Below, piece by piece: positions 7,488 through 53,558 of a stretch of DNA of 64,000 nt (its first letter is position 1; each line of letters opens with the position of its first letter). The notes under the pieces are model-generated. The model made no database searches. It was not told the origin of the DNA and worked only from the letters and a program-made list of their open reading frames with translations. The stretch lies in NCBI GenBank assembly GCA_038885755.1, contig JAVZZH010000002.1:160001-224000 (forward strand), written 5' to 3'. The translations under genes and the position numbers were made by a program. Source of the DNA: Candidatus Caldarchaeum sp. Lineage in GTDB: Archaea; Thermoproteota; Nitrososphaeria_A; Caldarchaeales; Caldarchaeaceae.

Positions 7488-8786
7488 TTACCCCGATATT
7501 TTCCCCGCAGCCGGCTTAACAATCCGCTTCGCTAGCTGATGGATGGCCACCGACACAGCGACGGAGACTGCGAAAGACGGGATGGATGCCCCGGTTGATG
7601 GGGCCAGCTGGACTATGGCCACGTAGACAGCTATTCCTGAAACCCAAGCTATCATGCTTCCGGCTTTCAAGCCGCTTCTTCTGTAGAACTCCTCAATCGA
7701 CGGCGGGTTGGCTCTCCTGTTTATGAAGAACTCGGAAGCCATGACGCCGAGAAGCGGGACGAAGAGGGAGCCGATTAACAGCAGGAACCACTCATACTGC
7801 ATCAGCGGGACGGCGAGAGCTAGGACAGCTCCTGCAGCGGCTGTGAAAGCGGCGAAAACCCACTGAGGCGTCTTGGTGAAAATGTTCTGGAAGGAGACAG
7901 CCGATGAGTAGATGTCCGCGAAGCCGTTATCCGTCTCGTCAACCAGTATCAGCAGCAGGGCTGCGTTTCCGAGGAATAGAGCACCTACTGCCGAGATTAT
8001 GTCGTTGATTCCCAGCACTGCTACGAGAGCTGCTCCGAGGAAGTAGAACCAAGTGTTTGATACGGTGTATCCTGTGAGCGTTCCGAGGAAGCTTCCCGAC
8101 TGCTTCGCGGAGAACCTGTTGTAGTCTGAGACGAGAGGCCACCATGATATCGGCATGGCTACGACGAGGTCGAGGGCGAGTAGTATTGGGATTGCTTCGG
8201 GGCTACGTGCTGTAAACCATGCACCGAAGCCGGGCGAGCTGACCACCATGTATGTTATCCAGATGGATGAGGCGTAGACAAGCCATATAGCAACCTTTTC
8301 AAGCCATTTCCTCACGACGACGAGAGGCCCTCCAATGGCGAGAAACATACACCACAGGCTGAACAAAATCACCCAGATTGGGAAGCTGAGGCTGCCGAAA
8401 AGCCAGCCGGTCAAAACCGAGGCAGCCTGAGCCATGATCATTATCTCGAACCCAGTCCATCCAATCAGCTGGACTATGTTGAGAACGGTCGGGATGTAGC
8501 TTCCCCTCAACCCTAGCACAGGCCTTAGGCTGACCATGGTTGGGACGCCGTACCTGCTGCCTACGGCGCCGGCGACGGCCAGCATCAGGCTGCCGATGAC
8601 AGAGCCTGCTACAGCCACGGCCAACACCTCAACCAAGCTGAGCGATGACAGGAAAGAACCCGCAACCATAACCAGTAATCCTACGCCAAGGCTTGACCAT
8701 AGGACGAAATAGTCGACGAACCTGAGCTGACGCGCCTCCTGCGGAACAGGATCAGGGCCCCACTCGGGCGGAAGCCTTATCTTCAT
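7488..8786 (-). CDS. cytX: NCS1-family permease, CytX-like (putative hydroxymethylpyrimidine/thiamine precursor transporter)
   Basis: About 12 TM segments, LNIVQLIGWTGFEI, AMPISWWPLVSDYNRF, DETDNGFADIYS; ATG 8786 lies about 27-32 bp downstream of a TTTATA box. Confidence 0.75.
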   Translation of the reverse strand: MKIRLPPEWGPDPVPQEARQLRFVDYFVLWSSLGVGLLVMVAGSFLSSLSLVEVLAVAVAGSVIGSLMLAVAGAVGSRYGVPTMVSLRPVLGLRGSYIPTVLNIVQLIGWTGFEIMIMAQAASVLTGWLFGSLSFPIWVILFSLWCMFLAIGGPLVVVRKWLEKVAIWLVYASSIWITYMVVSSPGFGAWFTARSPEAIPILLALDLVVAMPISWWPLVSDYNRFSAKQSGSFLGTLTGYTVSNTWFYFLGAALVAVLGINDIISAVGALFLGNAALLLILVDETDNGFADIYSSAVSFQNIFTKTPQWVFAAFTAAAGAVLALAVPLMQYEWFLLLIGSLFVPLLGVMASEFFINRRANPPSIEEFYRRSGLKAGSMIAWVSGIAVYVAIVQLAPSTGASIPSFAVSVAVSVAIHQLAKRIVKPAAGKISG

Positions 8787-8812
8787 GAGACTGACGGTAT
8801 CCGCATCCACAA

Positions 8813-8840
8813 TATAAACCACTATATAACCAAGTTATAT
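8813..8840 (-). promoter_or_regulatory. TATA box plus perfect palindrome ATATAAC-CAA-GTTATAT (candidate operator)
   Basis: 7-3-7 inverted repeat at 8824-8840 directly upstream of minus-strand TTTATA (8818-8813). Confidence 0.6.
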
Positions 8841-9113
8841 TCTCAGAAACAATACACCTGAAGAAAACCAAACCTCAACCATCTAGAAAGCCTAGGATGG
8901 ATAAACTTGTCGTCAAGCAGGAAACAACCGCTTACCGAGCATGCGAGAGATTTTCTACTTCTCGACGGAGCTATCACCACGGCGGCGGACCTCCCGATTC
9001 TCTATCAAACGGGTAAAAAGTCGCGGGCTGTTTCTATGAGGCTACAGCACAACCCCATCCACCATAGAGGCTTGCCTTTTCCTGAAACAGGGTCTGGAAA
9101 GGATCTTAACGAG

Positions 9114-9536
9114 TTATGACTTTTTGTTCTCGTTTAAATTGATTACAGCGAGTCCTTTTTCAGTCAAGCTGTATTTATAGGGTTTGCCGGACCGGGATAC
9201 GAGACCCATTTCGTAAAGATTCTTCATAACACGAGCTGAATGCTCCCGGCTCAGGTTCAGGCTTCGGCTGATATCACTTGATATCACACTCCCCTTCTCC
9301 CTTATAAGCCGCAGGGCCGCCAAAGCCGATTCGTGCAGCACCGGCATCTCGTCGCTTTTCCCAGTGTTGTCGGGGTTTGATGGAGGCGGCTGGGTTCGAC
9401 GGGGTTGCTGTGATGCAGCGTGATTTTCTTTTCCATGTGTGATATCACGGTTTGCCACAGCCCGTCTGTAGAGGAAGATGAAAACCGCTGTCTGCGTCAT
9501 GAAAAGAATGGTGAAAACAGCCGTTAAAGCCTCCAA
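9114..9536 (-). CDS. Membrane-anchored winged-helix (MarR-like) DNA-binding protein
   Basis: N-terminal TM (ALTAVFTILFMTQTAVFIFLY), low-complexity P/Q linker, then wHTH (ISRSLNLSREHSARVMKNLYEMGLVSR...YSLTEKG); TTG start 9 bp after the upstream stop. Confidence 0.8.
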   Translation of the reverse strand: MEALTAVFTILFMTQTAVFIFLYRRAVANRDITHGKENHAASQQPRRTQPPPSNPDNTGKSDEMPVLHESALAALRLIREKGSVISSDISRSLNLSREHSARVMKNLYEMGLVSRSGKPYKYSLTEKGLAVINLNENKKS

Positions 9537-9996
9537 ACCACCCTTCAACCCTCCAGAGAGACTAGAAACTCCTTCACAGCTTCCCAGTCTCTGTCCTCGA
9601 AGGCTTCGCTGAGCCTGAAAAACCACTGGTATTCGGGGAGCTTGACAACTCCCAGATAGCTTAGGAGAATAAGCGTGAACAAGGCTTTTGAGACGTTGCG
9701 CAACGCCTGCTTCTTGGTCCTCACGAACGATCCTTTCGTGACGCCGCGTAGCGCGGCTCGCTGTTCGGCTGTTAGCATCACGCCATCACGTTGCGACATC
9801 ACGTCGAATACAAGGGTTTCCGCCTGTTTCTTGGTTAGGCTGGATTTCTTAACTAGTTCTTGGAAGACCTTGTCTTCGGCTATTTTACGTATTGTCTCGG
9901 CGATTTTTTCGCCGTCGGGGATTTTCCTGTCCAACTCCTTCCACGGAATACAGTTTTGTAAACCGCGGTATATTTGCATCACGCCGCATCACGCCG
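9269..9996. repeat. Cluster of GTGATATCAC-like decamers, several in 10-bp tandem phase
   Basis: TGATATCAC at 9269 and 9279; GTGAT at 9410 and 9420; perfect GTGATATCAC at 9439; GTGACGCCGC at 9738; CATCACG at 9776, 9784 and 9797; GCATCACGCC at 9976 and 9986. Confidence 0.75.
9545..9934 (-). CDS. Helical hypothetical protein, possibly HTH-like (ORF open to 9982)
   Basis: SSLTKKQAETL...RAALRGVTKGSFVRTKKQALRNVSKALFTLILLSYLG resembles a sigma70-region-4/Tfx-like HTH followed by a hydrophobic helix; co-oriented with the wHTH gene. Confidence 0.7.
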   Translation of the reverse strand: MDRKIPDGEKIAETIRKIAEDKVFQELVKKSSLTKKQAETLVFDVMSQRDGVMLTAEQRAALRGVTKGSFVRTKKQALRNVSKALFTLILLSYLGVVKLPEYQWFFRLSEAFEDRDWEAVKEFLVSLEG

Positions 9997-10066
9997 GGAA
10001 CACCTACAGCAGAGATCTCTAAGTAATACGCCAACTATTAATAACGAGCTGATCTCTTCCTGTGTC

Positions 10067-10447
10067 ATGGCTGTGGTTAAAAACGCCAGCAGCGTGGGTT
10101 CACAAGAGGTTGAGAAGGCCAAGCTCGCGTTCATCCAGTGGCTTATTGACTCGCGCGACGGCTCCAGCAACATTTACCTGAGAAAGTTCACGGTCAAGCC
10201 CGGCGGGGAGATTCCTTCTCACAGCCATCCGGACATGGAGCACGTTCAGTATGTGTTGCGGGGCGAGTATGAGGTTTCTCTGGATGGCGTGGTTCACAGA
10301 GTTAAGGCGGGCGATGTTCTCTTCATCCCAGCCAACACCGTCCACAGCTACAGGAACACAGGCGGCGAGGATGCGGAGTTTCTCTGCATAATAACAAGCA
10401 AGCCATACAGCACGATTTGGGGAGAAAAACCAGCTCCACGCTGTTGA
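10067..10447 (+). CDS. Cupin domain protein
   Basis: PSHSHPDMEHVQYVLRG and GDVLFIPANTVHSY cupin metal motifs. Confidence 0.9.
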   Translation: MAVVKNASSVGSQEVEKAKLAFIQWLIDSRDGSSNIYLRKFTVKPGGEIPSHSHPDMEHVQYVLRGEYEVSLDGVVHRVKAGDVLFIPANTVHSYRNTGGEDAEFLCIITSKPYSTIWGEKPAPRC

Positions 10448-51498: not shown

Positions 51499-52725
51499 AT
51501 GAGCATTCCTTCTATGAGGAGTGTAGAATTGGGCGGTCGCATGATTCTTGAGGGGCCCTTCTTGGAGCAGGTAGTGGCTGCATACCTCTTGAAGAATGGT
51601 AGAGAGGTTGTTTCAAGAATTGAGACCGGCGGCGTATCACATGACGTCCTAGTTAAGACATATAACGGTCATATTTTGTATGAGTGTACGGGTCAAAGAG
51701 AGATAACCGAGGGTAAGATAGATAAGTTTCACAGGGATGTTTTAACTCTGCACGATGTTTTAAAAGGAGAGGGTGGAATAGTGGAAGCAGTCTTTGCCGC
51801 CTCTGTACATGATGATGCATGGACACCCAGCGCAAGAAACGCCTTAGAACTGGTTAGGGAGAGTCTGAAGAAGAGGATAAAAGCCGAGCTCAAGGTAATT
51901 TCAGGCCTTGAATTACTTAAAGAGCTGTTTAAGAGCGGAGTCCTTGGACTAAGACTTGTTAAAGGTAAATTACACTTCGCAGGGCCTGAAGATTACGCAA
52001 TAAGATATGATGCAGACAGCAAACAATTCAAAATATCCTTTGCGCCCATAGAATTGTGGAGGTTTAGAGAACTACCCTATTCATTTCTACCCTCTTTTTA
52101 TTGGGAACAGCATTACAGAACAATATATGAGGAATCAGCCAAAGGTAAGGAAGAGCCGTTCACCATATGGACATACTACTACGATGAAGGCGTTAATTGG
52201 AGCTCATCTGGAGATATTGTTGAAGCATATGCCAAATATCTGAACCTGTCTTCACATGCTTACGTAATGGAAAGGGGAGATGATTACATTATTGAAGAAT
52301 ATACATCTGCAAGAAGAAATCGGTCCTATAATGTGTACATGTTCAGTAATGCATCTAACGTTGATTCTTCAGAGGCAGGTAAACTTATAGGAAAAGCCAT
52401 AAGACTTATAGACAAGATAAGAGTCGAGCGCAGTTATTTGATGGAGGAAAAATTTTCAGTATATATCTACTCGGCCACTGAAGATTGGAGCTTTAAAGCT
52501 TGGGGTGATTTGAAGAAAAATATCCCAGAACCGCTACGCGCTGACATAAGTGACATCAGACCAGTAAGGGGGAACGAGCTACTTTTAACACTACTCAATA
52601 GTGGTGTTCTAGGGTTGAGGTTTAAAACCAGAAATGAGGCAACACTTGTAGGGCCGGGAATAGATGCAGTAAGGATATCAAGGACAGACGCCGGAAGAGG
52701 GTTAACCATATCAAATGAGCCCTAG
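51499..52725 (+). CDS. Mrr-like PD-(D/E)xK restriction-endonuclease-fold protein with internal duplication
   Basis: FLEQVVAAYL...GG.SHDVLV...LYECT; repeated motif ISGLELLKELFKSGVLGLR / VRGNELLLTLLNSGVLGLR. Start could be 51541. Confidence 0.65.
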   Translation: MSIPSMRSVELGGRMILEGPFLEQVVAAYLLKNGREVVSRIETGGVSHDVLVKTYNGHILYECTGQREITEGKIDKFHRDVLTLHDVLKGEGGIVEAVFAASVHDDAWTPSARNALELVRESLKKRIKAELKVISGLELLKELFKSGVLGLRLVKGKLHFAGPEDYAIRYDADSKQFKISFAPIELWRFRELPYSFLPSFYWEQHYRTIYEESAKGKEEPFTIWTYYYDEGVNWSSSGDIVEAYAKYLNLSSHAYVMERGDDYIIEEYTSARRNRSYNVYMFSNASNVDSSEAGKLIGKAIRLIDKIRVERSYLMEEKFSVYIYSATEDWSFKAWGDLKKNIPEPLRADISDIRPVRGNELLLTLLNSGVLGLRFKTRNEATLVGPGIDAVRISRTDAGRGLTISNEP

Positions 52726-52739
52726 TGATGATATAATCG

Positions 52740-53558
52740 TTAATTTTTTCGGGCTGGCAATCTGTTTAGGGCTTTTTCAACCTCTTCTTCTCCCATCTCA
52801 TCACATAATCGCCATAGCTTTTTTATCAAATCTTTCCGTTTAGCTGACCTCTCTTTATACTGTATGAGGGCTTCTTCCTTTAGGGGGCCTAAGGCTAGCT
52901 GTATCCCCTCCCCGTTTTCCTCAACCCTCATTAAATAGCTCTCTCCGAGGAAGGGCCCGACTGCAGTATCTACTTCGCTTACAGCGTCAACTATGAATGT
53001 GGATAGAAGCCCCAAGTCCAGCTCCATAGTATAGCCCAGCATCCTTAGTAGTAGGATGCCTCCAGTCACAAACCCTGAGCCTATCACCGCGTAGCCGGGG
53101 TTGTCATGCACCGGTTCCGCCAAACCCTTACTATCAAATGTGTAGATTGAAGCCCTTCCAGAAGGTTCTATGGTGGGGTCTAATCCACACAACACCATCT
53201 GAAAGCCCGGATCTAACCCCATGTTTCTAAGCTCGCTAAACCTCCTTGCAAACCTATACTCCATCTCCCTCACCGCTTTCCTAAAGGCTGTAAACCTTAC
53301 CGGATACTCGTCCCTAGCGTACTTTAGCAGAATATCCTCAGCTACTTCAAACCCCCATTTCGCTAAAGACGGGTCGCCTGCACCTCCCGCTATAGCGACA
53401 GGCTTGTCCTCCATCAAAAAAATAGGATACACCTTCTTAACCTCATAAGATACGCCAATAGATGTTGTGGCTTTTGAGTCCGACGAGACCAAAACAGCTT
53501 CAGTTAATCCACCATCCTTTTTTTCAAAAGCCCATTTGAAAGCCAAGATTAGGGTCAT
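52740..53558 (-). CDS. Proteasome-beta/HslV-like Ntn-hydrolase with no propeptide
   Basis: M-TLILA, SSDSKAT, KKVYPI, AGGAGD, VLCGLD, IYTFDSKG, YAVIGSG and EVDTAVG parallel the T1/D17/K33/G47/S129/D166 layout. Confidence 0.75.
   Translation of the reverse strand: MTLILAFKWAFEKKDGGLTEAVLVSSDSKATTSIGVSYEVKKVYPIFLMEDKPVAIAGGAGDPSLAKWGFEVAEDILLKYARDEYPVRFTAFRKAVREMEYRFARRFSELRNMGLDPGFQMVLCGLDPTIEPSGRASIYTFDSKGLAEPVHDNPGYAVIGSGFVTGGILLLRMLGYTMELDLGLLSTFIVDAVSEVDTAVGPFLGESYLMRVEENGEGIQLALGPLKEEALIQYKERSAKRKDLIKKLWRLCDEMGEEEVEKALNRLPARKN

Follow-up and report, generated by a model that had tools for sequence, protein, structure and literature searches.

A putative self-targeting site array with a membrane-anchored winged-helix reader in Candidatus Caldarchaeum and related archaea

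The 64,000-nucleotide (nt) stretch of Candidatus Caldarchaeum sp. analysed here (positions 160,001 to 224,000 of contig JAVZZH010000002.1; "the window" below) contains, at 9114-9996, two small open reading frames (ORFs), ORF A and ORF B, that are laced with short sites reading GTGAY or RTCAC. Comparison with related loci indicates that these sites are a real array of cis-elements under selection at the level of the DNA, and that the module is best described as a self-targeting centromere or operator array with a membrane-anchored reader, its function being putative. The reading favored here, at a little less than an even chance, is that the array is bound by ORF B, a membrane protein with a winged helix-turn-helix (wHTH) domain, which would repress its own operon and hold origin-proximal DNA at the membrane. 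In what follows, G000 is the genome under study (1.33 Mb), other G numbers are genomes, L numbers are loci, and f1, f2 and so on are working family labels.

The ORF A/ORF B locus and its sites

The features of the array, in window coordinates, are as follows.

9114-9536, minus strand: ORF B, 140 amino acids (aa), with a TTG start at 9536 chosen by alignment of orthologues
9545-9934, minus strand: ORF A, 129 aa, with a likely TTG start at 9934 (listed as 9982-9545)
9269-9287, no strand assigned: two TGATATCAC sites 10 bp apart, starting at 9269 and 9279, inside the wHTH coding part of ORF B (VISSDIS)
9410-9424, no strand assigned: GTGATGCAGCGTGAT, a phased direct pair where ORF B encodes its variable linker
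9439-9448, no strand assigned: GTGATATCAC, a perfect 10-bp palindrome just past the transmembrane helix of ORF B (RDIT)
9738-9742, no strand assigned: a GTCAC half-site in ORF A (GVTKG), kept in the genus alignment
9775-9802, no strand assigned: three ATCAC half-sites in ORF A (DVMSQRDGVM)
9970-9975, minus strand: AAATAT, a candidate TATA box of ORF A, presumed to act as such from its position and from AAAWATA conservation in the genus alignment
9976-9995, no strand assigned: GCATCACGCC twice (on the minus strand, GGCGTGATGC twice), a phased direct pair that adjoins the TATA-like box in front of ORF A

Both genes lie on the minus strand, with 8 nt between the stop of ORF A and the start of ORF B. 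A first-pass annotation, made from the letters of the DNA, had reported 11 GTGAT/ATCAC half-sites here, including the perfect palindrome and three pairs spaced by 10 bp, and all of them were found: GTGAT at 9410, 9420 and 9439, and ATCAC at 9273, 9283, 9444, 9777, 9785, 9798, 9978 and 9988. All 11 fall within 9269-9992, and a near-copy of the 9410 pair lies on the minus strand at 9978-9992. That annotation gave a rough expectation of one to two half-sites; the genome mean is 1.54 per kb, or 1.36 per 883 bp.

It is the arrangement of the sites, not their number, that is exceptional. The phased pair GTGAY-N5-GTGAY occurs three times in G000, every time at this locus. There are 55 copies of TGAYRTCA in the genome, three of them here, while every other 900-bp window has at most one; the full palindrome GTGAYRTCAC occurs twice, once at the locus, which also holds three of the seven genomic copies of the 10-mer that forms the 9976-9995 pair. 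The only other windows of G000 with at least 10 half-sites are two CRISPR arrays and one Thr-rich repetitive ORF. (Both CRISPR arrays, at C3:23.2-24.3 kb and C6:8.6-10.5 kb, have the same repeat, with GTGAT at its start.) A single genome-wide peak had been anticipated, and the sites do peak at the module in each genome checked. Among five congeners, the share of phased pairs that lie in the module is 3/4 in G004, 4/5 in G003, 3/8 in G008, 3/7 in G009 and 2/7 in G012; across six genomes the 10-mer palindrome has 2-6 copies each, with 7 of the 18 in or beside the module. Along the 19 kb from cdc6 to the module in G009, the kilobases of the module hold 11 and 8 half-sites, against 0-5 per kb elsewhere. 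Within the loci retrieved from f5, density at the module is 12-17 half-sites per kb, compared with 0.9-4.2 elsewhere. The phased pair is non-discriminating in four f5 genomes and one f31 genome, where 6 of 37 genomic matches are at the module (at least one per genome).

Conservation of the sites and selection on the DNA

Twelve loci of f1 were aligned (L005 and L007, at contig ends, were excluded, and L015 was counted but not aligned). Half-sites recur in them at five places: a phased pair abutting the AAAWATA box upstream of ORF A; a palindrome with two to three half-sites in ORF A; GTCAC at the GVTKG codons; a cluster past the transmembrane helix and in the linker of ORF B; and a TGAYRTCA phased pair in the wHTH coding region. 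The upstream pair at 9976-9995 is kept as GTGAY-N5-GTGAY in 10 of the 11 genus loci with upstream DNA and in two of four other f1 loci. Where G000 has its three half-sites at 9775-9802, orthologues carry GTGAT[AG]TCAC and two to three further half-sites. The place of the 9439 palindrome retains TGAYRTCA, at +479 to +488, in f1 and f4g7 loci, and that of 9269-9287 is occupied in f1 orthologues by either TGAYRTCA-N2-TGAYRTCA or GTGAY-N5-GTGAY. In the linker of ORF B the same type of 15-mer is found in either orientation and in different frames among species; in L002 and L006, for instance, the 9410-type 15-mer lies about 30 nt off, inverted and in a different frame. Orthologous gene pairs do carry the motif at non-homologous codon positions and in both orientations, as the first-pass annotation had proposed to check.

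Do the encoded proteins account for the sites? The same annotation had argued that they do not, and permutation of synonymous codons within each gene, over 13 f1 loci, leads to the same view, since none of 1000 permutations reaches the observed values. GTGAY is found 51 times in ORF A (27.7±3.4 expected) and 85 times in ORF B (42.2±4.5 expected). For TGAYRTCA, the counts are 12 against 2.2±1.4 in ORF A and 28 against 2.4±1.4 in ORF B, or 40 against 4.6 for the two genes together. Related genomes are not independent in such a test, yet at 60% protein identity synonymous sites should be scrambled. An excess of GTGAY in ORF B is seen also in the other f4 genera (13 against 5.8) and in f5 (34 against 14.4), and the f4g7 coding sequences have an excess of TGAYRTCA (4 against 0.8 in ORF A, 3 against 0.6 in ORF B). 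The clusters occupy different places in f1, in f4g7 and in the other f4 genera, a pattern of site turnover with retention.

ORF B as the predicted reader

The sites follow ORF B, not ORF A. When TGAYRTCA is counted from -250 to +900 of the ORF A start, with the incomplete loci L005, L007 and L037 excluded, it is present in 22 of 22 loci with ORF B (f1 and f4; 64 sites) and in none of the 15 f2/f3 loci with ORF A alone, whether in ORF A or upstream of it; in about 79 kb of flanking DNA there are six. Matches to ORF B were obtained in f1 (15/17), f4 (31/35), f2 (2/19, these being weak matches to other, longer proteins) and f3 (1/4). When 17 f2/f3 genomes were searched with a profile, a full-length ORF B was recovered in only one, G028, and its gene carries the variant GTGATCAC together with six half-sites in about 480 bp. 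The first-pass annotation had imagined an array bound by both products of the locus. The data point to ORF B rather than both products as the predicted binder; ORF A has a different palindrome (see below).

The case for ORF B as the likely binder rests on this co-occurrence, on its conserved reading head and on the chemistry of its wHTH. The protein has an N-terminal transmembrane helix (residues 2-30) with RR after it; a disordered linker (33-63; about 30 residues) leads to a wHTH (69-139) with the recognition helix SREHSARVMKNL. In Pfam it scores 35.8 bits for HTH_27, where the cut-off is 22.2, and 27.2 bits for MarR, where it is 24.6. In the AlphaFold2 (AF2) model, the helix has a predicted local distance difference test (pLDDT) score of 92-96 and the wHTH one of about 92; the Kyte-Doolittle mean over 19 residues reaches 2.06. 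Pfam, AF2 and hydropathy agree with the initial description of one product with a membrane helix, linker and wHTH beside another that is HTH-like with a hydrophobic helix; the helix of ORF A is not of transmembrane grade. The N- and C-terminal helices that make up the MarR dimer interface are missing from ORF B: the model shows a single C-terminal helix, and N-terminal dimerisation helices are absent from the alignment. In a Foldseek search with the wHTH, the top match was AspA, a centromere-binding protein of archaea (5k5q_C; E 1.2e-4; target-normalised TM-score 0.70-0.80), tied with MarR proteins (E 4-9e-4).

The reading head is near-invariant in 34 sequences from across the phylum (R97, E98, R102, K105, G111, R115, P119 and Y122), with the pattern S-R-E-H-x-x-R-x-x-K plus a wing of R...P-x-x-Y; at the level of sequence, a near-invariant reading head is matched by a conserved DNA motif. 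In other lineages ORF B has a long form of 200-240 aa, in which a transmembrane helix and a long helical region, read from its sequence as a coiled coil, precede the wHTH; here TrmB and MarR are both above the Pfam cut-offs. Anchor and DNA-binding domain are in all cases combined in one protein: the transmembrane helix plus wHTH of G000, to which the distant, f5, f31 and f6 loci add the long helical region. Prediction of an ORF A-ORF B complex gave a score of 0.00 and was made with no controls, which is uninformative either way. The orthologue in L004 (G010:C110) has an in-frame TAG and may be a pseudogene or an assembly error.

Distribution and position near cdc6

ORF A is near-universal and single-copy in its class (56 of 61, then 68 of 76 genomes), and single-copy in 154 of 301 genomes sampled across the phylum, where it is all-or-none by family; the module is present in every sampled member of many families. 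Named members of the ORF A family come from Bathyarchaeia, Candidatus Hecatella and Nitrososphaerota and are all annotated as hypothetical. Both protein families carry only the labels "hypothetical" or "winged helix DNA-binding protein".

All 12 distant loci, all four f5 loci and those of f31 and f6 have the long ORF B after ORF A, with a spacer of 120-530 bp between the two. The spacer has half-sites of the same kind: GTGAYRTCAC-A-N-RTCAC at the stop codon of ORF A, and GTGAT-N2-GTGAT ... ATCAC-N5-ATCAC ahead of ORF B, about 18 nt past a TTAAAT box. The Caldarchaeales have lost this spacer, and their sites are in coding DNA, where they presumably represent the ancestral intergenic array in compressed form. 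Extra GTGAY clusters are seen 450-1400 bp upstream of ORF A in distant lineages (L042, 998-1141; L048 and L051, 838-874 and 53-147), some of them apparently inside neighboring genes, as judged from six-frame ORF lists alone. In these three loci the array may span more than 2 kb.

Position was measured relative to Cdc6_C matches. All 19 measurable f5 genomes have one 2.8-3.0 kb from the ORF A match, and all 14 genomes of f6, f14, f18, f31 and f41 have one at 2.5-5.9 kb. In all 33 measurable genomes outside the class of the Caldarchaeales, then, the pair lies 2.5-5.9 kb upstream of orc1/cdc6, on the same strand, with cdc6 downstream. (Outside this count are four further f5 genomes, with the two genes at opposite ends of a single-contig record.) Four loci extended as far as cdc6 show a third small wHTH-like gene, protein C, and an AT-rich gap between ORF B and cdc6. 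Protein C holds this position in f5, f14, f18 and f6, and adjoins ORF A in f2g8 and in f4 outside g7. It has a wHTH-like C-terminus, and no Pfam family matches it at threshold. The copies are as follows.

L065, 2236-2625: protein C
L066, 2377-2799: protein C
L067, 2595-3008: protein C
L036, 934-1380: protein C
G000, C4:115352-115735: protein C, unlinked to the module in this genome

Intergenic DNA upstream of cdc6 in L065 holds one half-site.

ORF A and its own operator

ORF A has a helix-turn-helix (HTH) of the sigma70-region-4/LuxR type at residues 30-92, the last helix of which extends as a long hydrophobic helix; two C-terminal helices follow. Its AF2 model (pLDDT 90.9) matches sigma region 4, LuxR-type domains and EnfR (8hno) at VIA Z 7.8-8.1. 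No Pfam or NCBIfam family matches it, and 67 members of the family share none in Pfam, one member matching Sigma70_r4. The alignment profile found no match among PDB sequences at E<=10, and the ESM Atlas returned only clusters of "hypothetical protein". The possibility that ORF A is itself a membrane protein was rejected: its maximal hydropathy is 1.31, below the usual 1.6, and the helix lies inside a confident globular model.

The start of ORF A is most likely the TTG at 9934, since four orthologues carry a TAA within its first apparent codons and more distant families start later. This places the 9976-9995 pair in upstream DNA, where the first-pass annotation had put it. The public annotation of a close homologue (P0002) is 145 aa long and seems to take in the non-coding leader (window 9935-9982) with its GTGAY pair.

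Between the candidate TATA box and the start codon lies a different palindrome, and a second conserved element is found farther upstream.

9945-9963, minus strand: GTTTACAAAACTGTATTCC, with the core TACA-N4-TGTA at 9949-9960
10023-10029, no strand assigned: GTAATAC, which forms the core of a GGTAWTACC-like palindrome; it lies upstream of the repeats and is kept in f1, f2 and f4 loci

A matching TACA-type palindrome is found near the ORF A start in 47 of 60 loci phylum-wide, and it is probably the operator of ORF A itself. In f2 it becomes GACA...TGTC, and the recognition helix of ORF A shifts from F/Y-x-R-T/S to Y-A-K/R-I/V; this covariation is only suggestive, since it represents one evolutionary event. 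Also in f2, three genera (L021, L024 and L029) have a 103-115 aa ORF without a Pfam family and a ParA-type ATPase (AAA_31, E 4.6e-50) directly upstream of ORF A on the same strand, a set that may be a partition cassette.

In f1 the GGTAWTACC-like element precedes the GTGAY repeats by about 45 bp, and in f2 and f4 it precedes ORF A. It resembles the aCcr1-box, described in passages of a study of Sulfolobales as the 9-bp site of cell-cycle repressors of the ribbon-helix-helix (RHH) type (PMC9976878). Because of this resemblance, which is a lead only, ORF A might be under cell-cycle control. A TATTAATAA box is found at 10036-10044, near the GTAATAC core.

What might the array do?

In the favored reading, the N-terminal helix of ORF B would anchor the protein in the membrane, with its wHTH facing the cytoplasm, and the GTGAY/RTCAC sites would be its binding array, made up of 10-bp palindromes (GTGAYRTCAC) and of direct pairs one helical turn apart. 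Dimers or higher oligomers would fill several clusters over about 0.7 kb around and inside the operon. The cluster abutting the B recognition element (BRE)/TATA region of ORF A would shut the operon off once the array is full, the equivalent cluster of other lineages lying at the ORF B promoter; repression is presumed to come from promoter-proximal occupancy. Such feedback is typical of centromere-binding proteins. If ORF B does bind these sites, the bound DNA would be held at the membrane, because ORF B is a membrane protein, and it would be origin-proximal, given the ancestral position of the module beside orc1/cdc6. The stretch of chromosome so held could serve origin positioning or segregation, while ORF A would act separately through TACA-N4-TGTA at its promoter. 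A structural, centromere- or tether-like role is pointed to by the many clusters, by their turnover with retention, by the coiled coil and by the synteny with cdc6.

A number of observations weigh against this. A palindrome of 8-10 bp is short for a typical MarR-type dimer and more usual for RHH or bZIP readers. The sites are confined to the gene of the protein itself, unlike those of bacterial tethers, which simple autoregulation would explain just as well. The coiled coil of ORF B has been lost in the Caldarchaeales, where ORF A is 11.3-152 kb from cdc6 in the 12 genomes where this could be measured (11.3, 14.3, 14.4, 22.4, about 32 in three genomes, 61, 73, 115, 124 and 152 kb), with cdc6 on another contig in four more. 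The first-pass annotation, which raised a role in origin positioning, had proposed locating the array relative to cdc6; the synteny outside the class favors such a role, and in G000 the nearest cdc6 is 73 kb away. GC skew along contig C2 is noisy and has no turning point at the locus, which is uninformative. In f4g7, the coding sequences have no excess of GTGAY (2 against 2.8 expected in ORF A, 8 against 9.3 in ORF B), and the modules have 1.1-5.3 half-sites per kb, against 2.5-4.1 in the flanks. Co-occurrence with ORF B is partly built in, because many of the sites lie within the ORF B gene; on the other hand, the sites in and upstream of ORF A likewise vanish where ORF B is absent. Finally, the GTGAT pentamer count alone is unexceptional, since a scan of all 512 pentamer pairs in G000 gave 50 loci at Poisson p<1e-6, among which this one ranks only 29th.

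Plain autoregulation is the main rival and a strong one, even if, taken by itself, it appears somewhat unlikely. On this view the array would only supply the operators of a membrane-tethered transcription factor, ORF B, and give it tight cooperative negative feedback, with the anchor used for signaling (for example, by proteolytic release); closeness to cdc6 would reflect gene dosage or cell-cycle timing, with no chromosome-structural role. The position of the clusters agrees with this, one abutting the TATA-like box of ORF A in f1 and another, in distant lineages, overlapping the region 15-20 nt downstream of the ORF B TTAAAT box, as do the loose cdc6 synteny of the Caldarchaeales and the lack of a regulon-like excess elsewhere (TGAYRTCA has 55 copies, with 11 the median for 8-mer palindromes when four variants are summed; reversed-pattern controls give 1-3 matches per genome). 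However, a factor whose sole dense target is its own gene needs another output. The many clusters, some of them 450-1400 bp upstream, inside neighboring genes or at the 3' end of ORF B, exceed what promoter occlusion requires, and the long coiled coil and the strict cdc6 synteny (33/33) outside the class suggest a structural role.

It is distinctly less probable that another protein reads the sites (ORF A, protein C, Orc1/Cdc6 through diverged ORB-like elements, or an RHH protein), with ORF B merely co-varying and the array acting in replication or cell-cycle control. Short palindromes one turn apart do resemble RHH operators, as the GGTAWTACC element upstream resembles the RHH aCcr1-box; protein C sits between ORF B and cdc6 in f5, f14, f18 and f6 loci, and the ORF A of f2 is directly downstream of a ParA-type ATPase. 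Yet f2 and f3 have ORF A, and cdc6 in the seven genomes checked, and TGAYRTCA is found in 0 of their 15 loci; the f2g8 loci, in which protein C adjoins ORF A, are likewise without sites. A separate conserved palindrome moreover belongs to ORF A, and in f2 it changes together with the recognition helix of that protein; only the single half-site is found upstream of cdc6 in L065. That the motif works in the mRNA, as a protein-binding or pairing element, is hardly to be expected: most half-sites in the ORF A of f5 do read GTGAT on the sense strand, and contigs from an RNA library cover the operon (a weak point), but the sites are palindromic, occur in both orientations, are phased by 10 bp and are found at promoters, far upstream and on the strand opposite to neighboring genes. 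A search of 8700-10200 against Rfam at E<=1 gave no match, so that the conserved leader corresponds to no known RNA family. Least credible of all is chance combined with amino-acid and codon constraints. The 29th rank of the pentamer count is in keeping with it, and it is contradicted by the permutation tests, by the uniqueness of the arrangement across genomes and by the presence of the sites with ORF B and their absence without it.

Other observations at the locus and in the window

Upstream of the operon is a divergent cupin gene and downstream a permease of the purine/cytosine type. A 70-aa ORF on the plus strand (8907-9119) overlaps the 3' end of ORF B, matches no Pfam family and is probably not a gene. 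Contigs from one metatranscriptome run, of a related strain at 85-95% identity, cover 9206-9970 and stop near 9966-9968, leaving the cupin gene and the DNA downstream of ORF B uncovered. They are only a weak hint that the operon is expressed, because they show no transcript start and cannot exclude DNA.

Restriction-modification sites were considered and rejected, as GATATC is not avoided (12 copies in the window, three of them at the locus). An iteron-type origin was likewise rejected: the nearest Cdc6_C match in G000 is 73 kb off, the sites are mostly in coding DNA with 53% GC, and there is the one half-site upstream of cdc6 in L065. Elsewhere in the window, ATATC/GATAT pentamers are locally in excess at 51800-52800, where the coding DNA is richer in AT; no arrangement was seen among them.

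Comparison with known systems

The first-pass annotation did not recognize the locus as SegAB or AspA-ParBA, and in gene order it differs from both. No ParA gene is adjacent to the module in G000 or in other f1 and f4 loci (in the SegAB layout, segB is downstream of segA and overlaps it), the sole ParA-like tblastn match in G000 being C1:320717-321451. No parB or parA follows downstream in G000, as it would in the AspA-ParB-ParA layout, and no ParB-type family of the ParABS kind matches ORF A or ORF B in Pfam at E<=1. According to passages of a 2016 review, SegAB of the Sulfolobales, a system with a presumed role in chromosome segregation, includes a small DNA-binding protein that is site-specific and whose palindromic sites lie at the operon itself (PMC5120986). 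The module shares the small protein and the palindromes at the operon, and in f2 ORF A directly follows a ParA-type ATPase; SegB, as described there, is not membrane-anchored. The same passages have AspA of the pNOB8 AspA-ParB-ParA system (PDB 5k5q, 4rs8) binding one 23-bp palindrome upstream of its own gene and spreading from it (PMC5120986). AspA is the best Foldseek match of the ORF B wHTH, although tied with MarR regulators, and differs in having, in this account, no transmembrane helix and a single 23-bp palindrome in place of an array of 5-bp half-sites.

What of the regulators to which the two proteins are related in structure? For ORF A, the HTH has its closest archaeal solved structure in EnfR (TON_1525) of Thermococcus onnurineus (PDB 8hno; VIA Z 7.8, root-mean-square deviation 1.1 Å over 52 residues, 29% identity), which is described as a dimeric repressor on a promoter pseudo-palindrome (PMC10570040). 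The HTH part alone aligns; the C-terminal part of ORF A differs. ORF B passes the HTH_27 and MarR cut-offs and in that respect is like MarR and TrmB proteins, but an N-terminal transmembrane helix, with or without the coiled coil, replaces their flanking dimerisation helices.

Short phased repeats that are at once centromere and autoregulatory operator are known from ParR/parC and omega, RHH proteins that work with a motor (ParM and delta, respectively). The omega heptad, WATCACW, even shares ATCAC with the present sites. Their repeats are contiguous, however, with a period of 7 or 11 bp, and here the reader would be a membrane-anchored wHTH protein without a known motor.

Why would such a module matter? 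To our knowledge, chromosome positioning and segregation in archaea outside the Sulfolobales are largely unknown, and the literature searched held no description of the module (subscription papers and supplements being beyond the search). The module brings with it a ready-made and easily mutated cis-element. Family f5 comprises low-GC complete genomes, which we take to be those of ammonia oxidisers; if so, cultured relatives probably carry the module. Even if autoregulation were its only role, this would be a deeply conserved membrane-tethered transcription factor whose binding sites were pushed into coding sequence on the loss of an intergenic spacer. Passages of the 2016 review list SegAB for Crenarchaea and Euryarchaea only (PMC5120986).

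The closest parallel in architecture is with the bacterial tethers RacA/ram, RocS and RicO/ricS, which, according to passages of a preprint, combine a DNA-binding domain (a winged HTH in RocS), a coiled coil and a membrane anchor and act on origin-proximal sites (bioRxiv 10.64898/2026.03.06.710092). The long ORF B, with its transmembrane helix, coiled coil and wHTH encoded beside cdc6, has the same parts. No sequence relationship was detected, the order of domains is reversed, and the Caldarchaeal ORF B is without a coiled coil. As far as those passages go, the bacterial proteins reach the membrane through an amphipathic helix or a partner protein, whereas ORF B has a true transmembrane helix, and their sites are spread over 600-700 kb rather than clustered on their own gene. 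The architecture of ORF B would thus mirror that of bacterial origin-to-membrane tethers as a functional class, not as a homology family. A bolder proposal, and a rather doubtful one, is that ORF A and ORF B, perhaps with protein C, and the GTGAY arrays are an ancient origin-proximal centromere or anchor of Nitrososphaerota, Bathyarchaeia and relatives, in which a transmembrane coiled-coil wHTH protein grips sites beside oriC/cdc6. Were it true, the module would be an independently evolved archaeal counterpart of RacA, RocS and RicO, and possibly the missing segregation device of lineages without a described SegAB-type system.

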